NCBI RefSeq assembly: GCF_000026545.1
Contig: NC_011601.1
DNA: 64,000 bases
Reading direction: 5' to 3' (one strand)
From: Escherichia coli O127:H6 str. E2348/69
GTDB lineage: Bacteria; Pseudomonadota; Gammaproteobacteria; Enterobacterales; Enterobacteriaceae
Part shown: one piece after another, positions 9,001 through 15,000 of the stretch
How the letters are laid out: each line of letters starts with the position of its first letter
Position numbering within the stretch: the first letter of the stretch is position 1
Made by a program: the position numbers

Positions 9001-12000
9001 ATCAACCACGTACAAGGTAAGCCCGTGATGATAGTCGACGCCGAGCAGGGGTACATCATCCAGCAACTGGTGGCGGCGTTGTATCAATCCGCAGAAACAG
9101 GGATGCGTGTGGAATTATGACCAGGCCAGTAACGTTAACGGAACCCCATTTCAGCCAGCATACCCTGAACAAGTATGCTTCGCTGATGGCGCAGGGGAAC
9201 GGCTATCTTGGGCTTCGCGCCAGCCATGAAGAAGATTACACGCGCCAGACGCGCGGCATGTATCTGGCAGGGCTTTATCATCGGGCGGGGAAAAATGACA
9301 TCAACGAACTGGTGAACCTGCCTGACGTCATAGGGATGGAGATTACCTTGAATGGTGAACTTCTTGCGCTATCCCGCGAAACGTGGCAGCGCGAGCTTGA
9401 CTTCGCCAGTGGAGAATTACGTCGCAATGTCGTCTGGTCTTCAGCCAGCGGCGCACGTTATGCCATTGCCAGCCGTCGCTTTGTTTCGGCAGAACAACTG
9501 CCGCTGATGGCGCTGGAAATCAGCATTACGCCGCTGGACGCTGACGCGTCAGTGCTGATTTCAACAGGCATTGACGCCACGCAAACCAACCACGGACGAC
9601 AACATCTCGACGAAATCCAGATGCGGGTGTTTGGTCAGCATCTGATGCAGGGGATCTACACCACCCAGGATGGGCGCAGTGATGTGGCCATCAGCTGTTG
9701 CTGTAAGGTGAGCGGTGATGTGCAGCAATGCTATACCGCCAAAGAGCGCCGTTTACTGCAACATACCTGCGCGCAGCTTCACGCAGGTGAGACGTTGACG
9801 CTGCAAAAACTGGTGTGGATCGACTGGCGGGACGACAGACAAGCCGCTTTAGACGAATGGGGCAGTGCGTCGCTTCGTCAGCTTGAAATGTGCGCGCAGC
9901 AGAGTTACGACCAACTTCTTGCAGCATCAACAGAAAACTGGCGTCAATGGTGGCAGAAACGTCGTATCACGGTAAACGGCGGCGATGCGCACGATCAGCA
10001 AGCGTTAGATTATGCGCTTTATCACCTGCGCATCATGACGCCTGCCCACGATGAGCGCAGCAGCATTGCGGCGAAAGGTTTAACCGGCGAAGGCTACAAA
10101 GGCCACGTTTTCTGGGATACAGAAGTATTTTTGCTACCGTTCCATCTGTTTAGCGAACCGACGATTGCCAGAAGTTTACTGCGTTATCGCTGGCACAACT
10201 TGCCTGGCGCGCAGGAGAAAGCGCGACGCAACGGCTGGCAGGGCGCTCTGTTTCCGTGGGAAAGCGCGCGTAGCGGCGAAGAAGAGACGCCGGAATTTGC
10301 TGCCATTAACATTCGTACCGGGTTGCGGCAAAAAGTGGCCTCTGCGCAGGCGGAACATCATCTGGTGGCCGATATCGCCTGGGCGGTTATTCAATACTGG
10401 CGGACCATGGGGGATGAAAGTTTCATTGCTCATGAAGGCATGGCGCTACTTCTGGAGACGGCAAAGTTCTGGATTAGCCGCGCGGTGAGGGTTAACGACC
10501 GTCTGGAAATTCATGATGTTATTGGGCCAGACGAATATACCGAACATGTCAATAATAACGCCTTCACCAGCTATATGGCGTATTACAACGTCCAGCAGGC
10601 GCTGAATATCGCTCGTCAGTTTGGCTGTAGCGACGACGCGTTTATTCATCGTGCAGAAATGTACCTCAAAGAACTGCGGCTGCCAGAAATTCAGCCCGAC
10701 GGCGTTTTGCCGCAGGATGATTCGTTTATGGCTAAGCCGGTGATTAATCTGGCGAAATACAAAGCGGCGGCGGGGAAGCAAACCATTCTGCTGGATTATT
10801 CACGCGCAGAAGTGAACGAGATGCAGATCCTCAAACAAGCTGATGTGGTGATGCTCAATTACATGCTGCCGGAGCAGTTCTCAGCGGCATCGTGTCTTGC
10901 CAATCTGCAATTTTATGAACCGCGCACTATTCACGACTCGTCATTAAGTAAAGCAATCCACGGCATTGTTGCCGCACGCTGTGGCCTGCTGACCCAAAGT
11001 TATCAGTTCTGGCGCGAGGGGACTGAAATCGATCTTGGTGCTGATCCACATAGCTGTGATGACGGTATCCACGCTGCCGCAACTGGCGCTATCTGGCTGG
11101 GGGCGATTCAGGGTTTTGCCGGGGTGAGCGTGCGTGACGGTGAATTACATCTCAATCCGGCGTTACCTGAGCAGTGGCAACAGTTGTCTTTCCCTCTGTT
11201 CTGGCTGTCTCTTATACACAAATCCCCACCCGGGGATTTGTGATGTCTGTCAGTCTGCTTTAGGGGGACTCTTTCCATCCGGTAGTTTCCTTCCTCCCCG
11301 GCAGCGATTTTTTGAACTTTTTCCTCACCTGTTGATCTTCTCTTATATTTCATTTTCTTCGGGTCTGTTATGGTACTTTCTGATTGTTATTCATGGGCTA
11401 ACGAGCAGTTTGGACATGCCCGTCTCGGTGATCCGCGTCGTACACGACGCCTTGTGTCACTGGCCTCTTCTCTCGCTCAGCATGCAGGTCTTTCTATTGT
11501 GAAATCATCCCAGTCCACTGCTCAGGTTGAAGGTGCGTACCGCCTGATACGTAACCCGTCTGTGTCCCCGCAAGCCATTGCCGAAGCCGGATTTACCGCC
11601 ACTGTAAGGGCATGTGAGGCTCATCCGCTGCTCCTCGCGCTGGAAGACACCACCACCATTAACTTCAGTCACAGTACGGCATCTGATGACCTGGGGAATA
11701 CCACCACTAACCCGAAGACGCGCGGGCTGCTGGCTCACTCTGTCCTGATGTACGCCCCCGACAGCGCCCTGCCAGTCGGTCTTATCGAACAGCAGCGCTG
11801 GAGTCGTGCCACGGACACCTACGGTGTTAAGCACCAGCGAAAAGAACGTCCCTATGAAGAAAAAGAAAGTTACCGCTGGCAGCAGGCTTCGGAGCGCATG
11901 GCCGAACGGCTGGGGGAGATACAGAAACGGGTAATCACTGTCTGTGACCGGGAAGCGGATATCTGGCATTACCTGCATTATAAAGTCAGCCACGGGCAGC

Positions 12001-15000
12001 GCTTCGTGGTGCGTGCAGCACAGAATCGCCGGCTGGAAGAAGCACCCGGCAAGCTCTTCGAACTGCCGGAAGTCCTGGCAACCGCGGGAAGCCACACGCT
12101 GAATGTGATGCAAAAAGGCGGGCGGGCAGCCCGCCAGGCCCGGATGTTCATCAGTTACAGCGAAGTCAGCATAAAAAATCCCGACAACAGCGGCCAGGCG
12201 CTCCCGCTCACGTATGTCTGTTGCCGGGAGCAGGCAGAGGACGGCGCCTGCTGGCATCTGCTGACGTCAGAAAAAGTGGCGAGTGCCGCCGATGCGCGAC
12301 GTATCGTCAGCCATTACGAGCGACGCTGGCTGATAGAGGAATACCACAAGGCGTGGAAAAGTGGTGGTACATGTGTGGAATCGCTGCGAATGCAGACCCG
12401 GGATAACCTCGAGCGCATGGTGGTTATCAAGGCGTTTATCGCGGTGCGGGTGCTGGGCCTGCGGCAGGGCGGTATCAGTGAAGAAACACAAAATGACAGC
12501 TGTGAGAAAATACTGACGCCGACAGAGTGGAAACTGCTGTGGGTTAAGCTGGAAGGAAAACCGCTTCCGTCACAGATGCCGACACTGAAATGGGCCTGTC
12601 TGAAACTGGCGAAACTGGGGCGATGGCATGACAGCAAACGCACCGGTCGCCCCGGTTGGGTAGTCATGTGGGATGGCTGGTTCAGACTTCAGGATATGGT
12701 TGAGGGTTACCTGGTGATGAAGTCTCTTGATCAGGAGATCTGATCAAGAGACAGCTGTTCTGGCAGGGCTGCGAATTACAGGTCACTCTCGACGCGCAGC
12801 GTATTGCGATTCGAACTTCTGCGCCCGTTTCACTGCGCTTGAACGGTCAGCTTATTTACGTCGCTGAAGAATCTGTTTTCTGTTTGGGGGATTTTATTTT
12901 GCCCTTCAATGGGACCGCTACCACACATCAGGAGGGTGAATGAAACTGCAAGGGGTAATTTTCGATCTGGATGGTGTAATCACCGATACCGCGCATCTGC
13001 ATTTCAAGGCGTGGCAGCAGATTGCCGCTGAAATTGGCATCAGCATTGATGCGCAGTTTAACGAATCCCTAAAAGGGATCAGCCGCGATGAGTCTCTGCG
13101 GCGCATTCTGCAGCACGGGGGCAAAGAGGGCGACTTTAACCCGCAGGAGAGGGCGCAACTGGCGTATCGCAAAAATCTGCTTTACGTCCACTCACTGCGC
13201 GAACTGACGGTTAATGCTGTGCTGCCCGGCATTCGCAATTTGCTGGCTGATCTCCGTGCACAGCAGATCCCTGTAGGGCTGGCTTCTGTCTCCCTGAATG
13301 CGCCGACGATTTTAGCAGCGCTGGAGCTGCGCGAGTTTTTCACCTTCTGCGCGGACGCTTCCCAACTTAAAAACTCGAAACCGGACCCGGAAATCTTTCT
13401 CGCCGCCTGTGCCGGACTGGGCGTGCCGCCGCAGGCATGTATCGGCATTGAAGATGCGCAGGCGGGCATTGACGCCATTAACGCCAGCGGTATGCGCTCG
13501 GTGGGGATCGGCGCGGGCTTAACCGGGGCGCAATTACTGTTGCCCTCAACGGACTCCCTGACCTGGCCGCGGTTATCGGCCTTCTGGCAAAACGTATAGC
13601 AAAGGAATCAACATGGCTCAGCTTTCGTTACAACATATTCAAAAAATCTACGATAACCAGGTGCATGTGGTGAAGGACTTCAACCTGGAAATTGCCGATA
13701 AAGAGTTCATTGTCTTTGTCGGTCCGTCAGGCTGCGGTAAATCGACCACCCTGCGCATGATTGCCGGGCTTGAGGAGATCAGCGGCGGCGATCTGTTGAT
13801 CGACGGCAAACGAATGAATGACGTTCCAGCCAAAGCGCGCAATATTGCGATGGTGTTCCAGAACTACGCGCTGTATCCGCATATGACGGTCTACGACAAC
13901 ATGGCGTTTGGCCTGAAGATGCAAAAAATCGCCAAAGAGGTGATTGATGAGCGGGTGAACTGGGCGGCGCAAATTCTCGGCCTGCGAGAGTACCTGAAAC
14001 GCAAGCCGGGCGCGCTTTCTGGCGGGCAACGCCAGCGTGTGGCGCTCGGGCGGGCGATTGTGCGCGAAGCGGGCGTGTTTTTAATGGATGAACCGCTCTC
14101 TAACCTTGATGCCAAGCTGCGCGTGCAAATGCGCGCAGAGATCAGCAAGCTGCATCAGAAACTGAACACCACCATGATCTACGTGACCCACGATCAGACC
14201 GAAGCGATGACCATGGCGACGCGGATTGTGATTATGAAGGATGGGATTGTTCAGCAAGTAGGTGCGCCGAAAACGGTTTATAACCAACCTGCGAATATGT
14301 TTGTTGCCGGATTTATTGGATCGCCTGCGATGAATTTTATTCGCGGCACGATCGATGGCGATAAATTCGTTACGGAAACGCTTAAATTAACCATACCCGA
14401 AGAGAAATTAGCGATTCTGAAAATACAGGAAAGTTTGTATAAGCCCATCGTGATGGGAATACGCCCGGAAGATATTCATCCGGACGCGCAAGAAGAAAAT
14501 AACATTTCCGCCAAAATTAGCGTGGCAGAATTAACCGGTGCTGAATTTATGCTCTACACCACGGTTGGGGGGCACGAACTGGTGGTCCGTGCTGGTGCGT
14601 TAAATGATTATCATGCAGGAGAAAATATCACTATTCATTTTGATATGACTAAATGTCATTTCTTTGATGCAGAAACGGAAATAGCAATTCGCTAAATACA
14701 GGGGGAAGGCATTCCCCCAGGATAATACAAGGAACAATAATGAAAAATTTATTACCCTGTACCGCACTGGTGATGTGTGCGGGAATGGCCTGCGCACAGG
14801 CCGAGGAAAAGAACGACTGGCACTTTAATATCGGCGCGATGTACGAAATAGAAAACGTCGAGGGTTATGGCGAAGATATGGATGGGCTCGCGGAGCCTTC
14901 TGTCTATTTTAATGCCGCCAACGGGCCGTGGAGAATTTCTCTGGCCTATTATCAGGAAGGGCCGGTAGATTATAGCGCGGGTAAACGTGGAACGTGGTTT

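Follow-up and report, generated by a model that had tools for sequence, protein, structure and literature searches.

We analyzed a 64,000-nucleotide stretch of the chromosome of Escherichia coli O127:H6 strain E2348/69 (NC_011601.1), hereafter the window, and all coordinates below are positions within it. The window carries the ycjMNOPQRSTUV-ompG operon, in which the kojibiose phosphorylase gene ycjT is split by an insertion sequence (IS), ISEc13, with its transposase gene (tnp). Here, we describe the insertion, what it does to ycjT, and the probable source of transcription for the distal genes ycjU, ycjV, and ompG, which appears to lie mainly inside the element. See Table 1 for the coordinates of the features discussed.

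The first-pass annotation of this DNA had placed an IS of about 1.5 kb with a 9-bp duplication inside ycjT, where it cuts off the last 60 or so codons, directly upstream of ycjU. This is what we found: the element is 1550 bp long, has CTGTTCTGG on both sides, and leaves 59 codons and the stop codon of ycjT beyond it. In strain K-12, ycjT has only one CTGTTCTGG, at the matching position. Removing positions 11205-12763 in silico restored a 2268-nt, 755-aa ycjT open reading frame (ORF) with zero internal stops, collinear with K-12 ycjT at 94.2% nucleotide identity and with 40 amino acid differences. ISEc13 transposed into ycjT in the E2348/69 lineage and made its usual 9-bp duplication in doing so. 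A 2201-bp query for the IS-occupied junction matched at 100% identity over its full length in 3 of 5426 complete E. coli genomes, all of them E2348/69 assemblies, and in any other genome the match covered at most 72% of the query. The empty site, searched as an 800-bp joined query, was contiguous in 4959 of the same 5426 genomes.

Table 1. Features of the ycj operon, of ISEc13, and of the second ISEc13 copy in E2348/69 (window positions; PWM, position weight matrix score).
Feature	Position	Strand	Remarks
Candidate ycjM promoter, TTGACA-17-TAGTCT	1385-1413 (TTGACA 1385-1390, TAGTCT 1408-1413)	+	PWM 10.7
YcjW operator O1, TGGGACCGCTACCA	1423-1436	.	Between candidate ycjM promoter and ycjM ATG 1449
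Truncated ycjT' ORF (kojibiose phosphorylase, GH65)	9117-11243	+	696 native + 12 IS codons, TGA
Left copy of 9-bp target-site duplication, CTGTTCTGG	11196-11204	.	Last 9 native ycjT bases before the IS
ISEc13, 1550 bp, IS4 family (IS50/Tn5-like)	11205-12754	+	tnp co-oriented with the ycj operon
11-bp stem hairpin (ACACAAATCCC/GGGATTTGTGT-type), inside left IS end	11217-11242	+	-18.6 kcal/mol, z = -4.3
Untranslated gap, ycjT' stop to tnp ATG, 126 nt, pyrimidine-rich	11244-11369	+	33 C vs 23 G
Best candidate tnp promoter, TTTCCT-18-TATATT	11320-11349	+	GATC in spacer; PWM 8.0, top 0.03%
ISEc13 transposase gene (tnp), 457 aa	11370-12743	+	Pfam Tnp_DNA_bind, DDE_Tnp_1, Dimer_Tnp_Tn5
13-bp stem hairpin, right terminal repeat + internal inverted copy	12722-12752	+	61-nt fold -26.7 kcal/mol, z = -3.4
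Right copy of 9-bp target-site duplication, CTGTTCTGG	12755-12763	.	
Orphaned ycjT 3' end, 59 codons + TGA (12941-12943)	12764-12943	+	RefSeq pseudo-CDS
YcjW operator O2, TGGGACCGCTACCA	12910-12923	.	Within ycjT 3' end, 6 nt before ycjU Shine-Dalgarno
ycjU (pgmB), beta-phosphoglucomutase, intact	12940-13599	+	NCBIfam TIGR01990, 273 bits
Second full ISEc13 copy	58062-59611	-	1 nt different from ycjT copy (IS position 126)
tnp of second ISEc13 copy (E2348C_1549)	58073-59446	-	

The native part of ycjT starts at 9117 and continues for 696 of its 755 codons to 11204, exactly the length that had earlier been given as approximate. The frame was also said to read 13 codons into the IS and stop. It does enter the element and stop there, with 12 IS codons (LSLIHKSPPGDL) ahead of the stop TGA at 11241-11243, so the figure of 13 holds only if the stop is counted. 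The predicted product is 708 aa long. RefSeq flags E2348/69 ycjT as a pseudogene in two pieces, the 5' piece "missing C-terminus" and the 3' piece "missing N-terminus"; the break is thus an ordinary one, already in public annotation. The restored YcjT contains Pfam GH65 N (residues 8-237), catalytic (298-660), and C (672-726) domains, and its closest solved structure is the Caldicellulosiruptor kojibiose phosphorylase, CsKP (PDB 3WIQ; E = 4e-114). The C-terminal beta-sheet domain of CsKP spans residues 692-756 (PMC11442529), and the last native residue of truncated YcjT, 696, falls close to CsKP residue 720 in the alignment, i.e., inside that domain. The PDE...NNNA and KQADV/HDSSLS blocks, whose catalytic-acid and phosphate-binding residues are assigned as in PMC11442529, align with CsKP and all precede residue 696. 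The truncated protein would therefore keep the (alpha/alpha)6 catalytic domain with its motifs, lose about 60% of the C-terminal beta-sheet domain, and gain 12 unrelated residues, so that the four-region GH65 architecture lacks a complete C-terminal domain. Because most of this domain is lost, we infer that truncated YcjT has lost its function.

The orphaned 3' end of ycjT ends in a TGA that overlaps the ATG of ycjU at 12940 (ATGA). No in-frame ATG or GTG start occurs in this piece, which is probably untranslated, and translational coupling into ycjU would therefore be lost. The ycjU gene has a strong Shine-Dalgarno sequence of its own, AGGAGG at 12930-12935, four bases before the ATG. Downstream, ycjV (13613-14695) is an intact 360-codon gene in E2348/69 and a pseudogene in K-12 (locus L081, 13822-14903), where this ABC-transporter ATPase gene is in two pieces, ycjV and ymjB, with no IS annotated there, unlike ycjT in E2348/69. 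The two inactivations are independent and hit different genes: ycjT is broken in E2348/69 and ycjV in K-12, a laboratory-propagated strain in which ycjT is intact. Each of these two reference strains is thus short of one gene of the operon, though not the same one.

The inserted DNA is 100% identical to E2348/69 copies whose RefSeq annotation is "IS4-like element ISEc13 family transposase," and our naming of the element follows this RefSeq product name (WP_000244358.1). Each of three E2348/69 chromosome records has 27-30 matches to ISEc13, while the median is 1 among genomes with any match, which indicates that ISEc13 has expanded in E2348/69. Like the Tn5 enzyme, the transposase has an N-terminal DNA-binding domain, a DDE domain, and a C-terminal dimerization domain (PF14706, PF01609, and PF02281). 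It scores 514 bits against NCBIfam NF033590 (cut-off 160) and aligns over nearly its full length with Tn5 transposase chains in the PDB (E = 6e-84). The EDTT, CDREAD, and Y-x2-R-x3-E-x6-K motifs are conserved in this alignment, with the catalytic D, D, and E aligned; we take these motifs to be the DDE/YREK catalytic residues of Tn5 transposase. The left end of the element reads CTGTCTCTTATACACAAAT and the right end, in reverse complement, CTGTCTCTTGATCAGATCT; 13 of 19 bases are common to both and the first 9 are CTGTCTCTT. As in IS50, both ends thus begin with CTGTCTCTT, the right end holds a cluster of GATC (Dam) sites, and the target duplication is 9 bp. The right end presumably equals the inside end of IS50, and two positions presumably separate the left end from the IS50 outside end. 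The conserved Tn5-type motifs, the 9-bp duplication, and the Tn5-like ends mark the element as IS50-like within the IS4 family. It is probably active as a mobile element.

ISEc13 is nevertheless distinct from IS50 and Tn5 in several respects. It is a separate named ISfinder element of 1550 bp, and its 457-aa transposase compares with chains of 477 aa for Tn5 in the PDB. Judged by eye, well under half of the aligned transposase residues are identical. Where the inhibitor of IS50 starts, no methionine is seen in ISEc13, and, unlike IS50, ISEc13 has strong hairpins just inside both ends.

A 16-bp repeat, ATGGGACCGCTACCAC, occurs at 1422-1437 and 12909-12924. Its 14-bp core, TGGGACCGCTACCA, is found exactly twice in the window, as O1 and O2, and is a palindrome in which 5 of 7 positions pair around a central CG. 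The O1 core ends 12 nt before the ycjM ATG and the O2 core 16 nt before the ycjU ATG. A repeated 16-mer is not improbable by chance in 64 kb (we estimate ~0.5 pairs), and the repeat alone carries no meaning as an operator; that meaning comes from its position, from chromatin immunoprecipitation sequencing (ChIP-seq), and from conservation. In K-12, the YcjW motif is of LacI type, a 14-bp palindrome centered on CG, and the two strongest YcjW ChIP-seq peaks lie before ycjM and between ycjT and ycjU (Luhachack et al., PMC6599011). Our comparison is with the text description of the motif in that paper. YcjW represses ycjM, ycjT, ycjU, and ompG, and kojibiose releases it from DNA in vitro (PMC6599011). 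The positions of O1 and O2 match both peak locations, and K-12 has the identical 14-mer at both sites, before ycjM and before ycjU. The earlier suggestion that the second copy of a candidate operator lies between the IS and ycjU was thus well founded, and the repeated 16-mer is a genuine YcjW operator that has already been published.

For conservation, we used 79 loci encoding YcjT relatives in other species and aligned about 50 enterobacterial loci on the operator. About 30 enterobacterial species, with YcjT identities of only 60-74%, all have the unaltered 14-mer 21-36 nt ahead of ycjU; Citrobacter, Enterobacter, Leclercia, Lelliottia, and Trabulsiella are among their genera, and Salmonella diarizonae is among the species. 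Going by these alignments, conservation of the operator exceeds coding constraint. Variants in Buttiauxella (L032, L033, L036, and L042; TGGGAGCGGTACCA) and Atlantibacter (L040, L041, and L043; TGGGAGCGCTCCCG) lie ~21-30 nt before ycjU and retain CG at the core and TGGGA/CC on the outside. The Atlantibacter version is a nearly perfect palindrome. There are hints that the E. coli TGGGACCGCTACCA may be a deliberately imperfect version of the ideal YcjW site. One further locus in the set, from a metagenome bin labeled "Citrobacter sp." (DXKH01000117.1), encodes a YcjT 98% identical to that of E. coli within an E. coli-type flank, and the bin is probably Escherichia under a wrong label. In E2348/69, ycjW is intact and both operators are the same as in the K-12 YcjW regulon. 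Unlike in K-12, the IS stands between O2 and the main part of ycjT, and O1 and O2 are 1559 bp farther apart.

Next, we turned to published transcriptomes of E2348/69. Table S2 of Pearl Mizrahi 2021 (PMC8550237) compares a Δhfq mutant with the wild type by strand-specific RNAtag-seq and lists every gene. Mean normalized counts per kb under virulence-activating conditions were 1.3 for ycjM-ycjS, 68 for tnp (E2348C_1509), and 8.9 for ycjU-ycjV-ompG; under non-activating conditions they were 1.1, 28, and 2.6. Read density in the distal genes therefore exceeds that in the proximal genes 6.7-fold in the activating and 2.4-fold in the non-activating condition, and amounts to about a tenth of the tnp signal in both. 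Under activating conditions, loss of Hfq raised tnp (log2 ratio +1.83, adjusted P [padj] 3e-10), ycjU (+2.88, padj 0.006), and ycjV (+2.20, padj 0.002); the change in ompG (+1.02) was not significant, nor was that of any gene from ycjM to ycjS. Under non-activating conditions, the log2 ratios were -0.24 for tnp, -0.45 for ycjU, +1.40 for ycjV (not significant), and +0.08 for ompG (not significant), and ycjM and ycjS did not change significantly. The second tnp copy in the window (E2348C_1549) gave log2 ratios of +1.94 and -0.30, so that both copies rose ~3.6-3.8-fold in Δhfq under activating conditions (padj 3e-10 and 2e-14) and were unchanged otherwise. The genes ydbC and azoR, which adjoin the second ISEc13 and are not downstream of its tnp, showed no Δhfq change. 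Hfq represses IS50 transposase transcription in E. coli (PMC4265352), and the rise of ISEc13 tnp RNA in Δhfq fits this and is a further likeness to IS50. The main text of PMC8550237 does not mention transposases.

A second data set, Hazen 2015 (PMC4464170), lists significant genes only, and ycjU is absent from the lists of the other enteropathogenic E. coli (EPEC) isolates. Between optical densities (OD) of 0.2 and 0.5 in lysogeny broth (LB), E2348/69 reads went from 21.5 to 68 for ycjM, from 45 to 184 (normalized) for ycjU, and from 13 to 8 for ompG. Per kb, ycjU in LB is ~5-7 times ycjM. In Dulbecco's modified Eagle's medium (DMEM), ycjM is down 9-fold, and ycjU is not among the listed changed genes. 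In the available E2348/69 data, the ycjM promoter is essentially off. The distal genes stand several-fold above the first gene of the operon, more than the operon promoter could supply as their only source, which points to additional transcription entering the operon beyond ycjS.

IS insertions in operons are classically polar, and the simplest expectation would be a knock-out in which the IS blocks essentially all transcription and leaves ycjU-ycjV-ompG silent and decaying. The premature stop followed by a 126-nt untranslated C-rich gap, the strong hairpins at both IS ends, and the low absolute distal counts all agree with this. However, distal read density is 2.4-7 times that of ycjM-ycjS, and ycjU reaches the LB count given above. 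Furthermore, ycjU, ycjV, and ompG are intact ORFs in all three E2348/69 assemblies. A terminator scan of 11000-13100 found no intrinsic terminator on the + strand, and neither IS-end hairpin is followed by a U run. We consider complete silencing improbable. The right-end hairpin, with its three GATC sites, extends over the tnp stop; the hairpins could attenuate read-in or read-out, or could be bound by the transposase or host factors. A search for Rfam structured RNAs across 9000-13700 returned no match, even at E <= 1.

The opposite view is that transcripts from the ycjM promoter cross the IS with little loss and that the distal excess reflects greater stability of the ycjU-ycjV mRNA. The same lack of a + strand intrinsic terminator in the IS would allow this, and ycjM and ycjU both rise 3-4 fold in LB from OD 0.2 to OD 0.5 (Hazen 2015). 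Yet loss of Hfq raises ycjU and ycjV 4-7 fold with ycjM-ycjS unchanged, ycjM and ycjU part ways in DMEM, and a 7-fold excess from stability alone would be large. We regard this explanation as very improbable.

A third explanation starts from O2. The first-pass annotation had proposed that the second operator could mark an internal promoter that rescues downstream expression. In this form, a native sigma-70 promoter within the final 176 bp of ycjT, immediately before O2, would drive ycjU-ycjV-ompG without any contribution of the IS, in other E. coli as well. The placement of O2 relative to the ycjU ATG does resemble that of O1 relative to the ycjM ATG, and distal reads exceed proximal reads in both data sets. 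In addition, a ycjU clone with ~430 bp of upstream ycjT sequence, termed the "promoter region," complemented a ycjU::Tn5 mutant (Han et al., PMC2824699), although the clone was in pBR322 and we infer that vector read-through may have contributed. The promoter scans gave the proposal little to build on. As a positive control, the ycjM promoter candidate scored within the top 2e-5 of all window positions, whereas the best score in the ycjT remnant (12764-12935) was 4.5, a value reached by ~0.4% of random positions. A strict consensus scan of 11000-13100 found no promoter-like site, and ~45 enterobacterial species share no conserved -10/-35 pair ahead of O2. The sole conserved block there is GAyTTTATTTtgCC. 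It codes for DFILP, conserved residues of YcjT, and in Enterobacter and relatives it no longer has the TAnnnT form. The K-12 transcription start site supplement of Romero 2014 does not contain the ycj genes. A promoter beside O2 thus finds no support in the sequence, though a weak or unconventional one is possible. An internal promoter would also leave unexplained why ycjU and ycjV follow tnp in Δhfq, an effect seen in one condition only. Taken together, we find such a promoter unlikely, and any rescue of the distal genes more probably comes from the IS than from an operator-adjacent promoter.

We also considered a hybrid or outward promoter at the right end of the IS. The best score across 12600-12935 was 6.0, inside the IS and at background level, and this candidate was rejected.

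We therefore favor read-out transcription from within the IS, since ycjU and ycjV follow tnp in Δhfq while ycjM-ycjS do not. Overall, ISEc13 broke ycjT, and we give a probability of about 0.6 to the full reading, in which YcjT activity is lost and ycjU-ycjV-ompG are now transcribed mainly, and at a low level, from inside the element, with partial Rho-dependent polarity expected on transcripts from the ycjM promoter. Such transcripts would have to cross the whole element. Ribosomes would stop at 11243 and leave the C-rich gap untranslated, followed by a poorly initiated tnp ORF, as tnp has a weak ribosome-binding site with no good Shine-Dalgarno sequence. Within the gap, the tract 11275-11365 is C-rich and G-poor (78-nt windows have C/G ratios of 2.3-2.4, about the top 1% of the window) and may be a Rho loading site. 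The premature stop, the untranslated gap, and the weak tnp ribosome-binding site make the first-pass view that polarity is likely a reasonable one, and Rho may act here. Transcription of tnp, running in the same direction as the operon, would continue past the tnp stop into ycjU-ycjV, with no intrinsic terminator between, and roughly a tenth of tnp transcripts would run out in this way. From these data, it seems reasonable that the distal genes take most of their low transcription from the co-oriented tnp. The counts are low, and read-out from the IS appears the likeliest distal source. O2, intact between the IS and the ycjU ribosome-binding site, could act as a YcjW roadblock on transcription arriving from upstream, a possible role for it in E2348/69; here and in K-12 it may instead work as a promoter-proximal operator or in another way.

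Several points weigh against read-out from the element as the main source. The ycj counts are very low (baseMean 0.2-11) and the ratios noisy. Reads from ISEc13 map to ~30 near-identical copies, so the tnp level at the ycjT copy is uncertain, and the support consists of gene-level counts. A native internal promoter would likewise give more distal than proximal reads, and all counts come from the IS-bearing strain. The right-end hairpin and YcjW at O2 should both impede read-out. In Hazen 2015, ompG co-varies with ycjM and not with ycjU, and loss of Hfq could raise ycjU and ycjV by an IS-independent route. Finally, the loss of YcjT activity that forms part of this reading is deduced from the missing domain.

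Classical insertions, such as IS1 and IS2 in gal and lac, or Tn5 and Tn10, are polar and show residual distal expression from promoters of the element. ISEc13 in ycjT resembles these cases: it interrupts a promoter-proximal gene in a long operon, where it introduces a premature stop and untranslated RNA, and it is co-oriented, with distal transcription that is low and uncoupled from the operon promoter. Unlike classical outward promoters, the likely source here is the tnp transcript running out of the element; the promoter scan detected no outward site. Gene disruption by an IS, polarity, and read-out are all textbook matter, and general understanding is unchanged. The ycjT pseudogene annotation and the YcjW operators are already known; what may be modestly new is that the distal ycj genes appear to ride on ISEc13 tnp transcription, itself a known kind of effect.

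The consequences are mostly for work on this strain. E2348/69 is the reference EPEC strain, and kojibiose phosphorolysis cannot be assumed there. K-12 results on the ycj genes and YcjW, such as H2S production via pspE and ycjU-linked stress survival, may not transfer to it directly. If the distal genes are indeed driven from the IS, the apparent regulation of ycjU and ycjV in E2348/69 Δhfq data would be a readout of ISEc13 tnp transcription, which is a caveat for interpretation. A broader proposal, which we hold only tentatively and at somewhat less than even odds, is that ycjU and ycjV have been rewired to the ISEc13 tnp promoter. They would then respond to the signals of a Tn5-like transposase, i.e., to Hfq and possibly also Crp and Dam, instead of following the ycjM promoter and its sugar response, with YcjW at O2 still gating them. 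In that event, Hfq-sensitive read-out could reach other co-oriented neighbors of the ~30 ISEc13 copies in E2348/69.

Elsewhere in the window, the second full ISEc13 copy, with the duplication (C)ACTTTCGTG on either side, has landed between two convergent genes, pdxI (ydbC) and azoR. Its site there is the loop of the hairpin CCTCCCAC-TTTC-GTGGGAGG, so the insertion has split a terminator-like stem-loop shared by the two genes. At ~56009-56368, RefSeq annotates two adjacent partial remnants, an HTH-domain protein and PaaX, beside paaY, an arrangement that suggests a deletion of most of the phenylacetate (paa) cluster from E2348/69.

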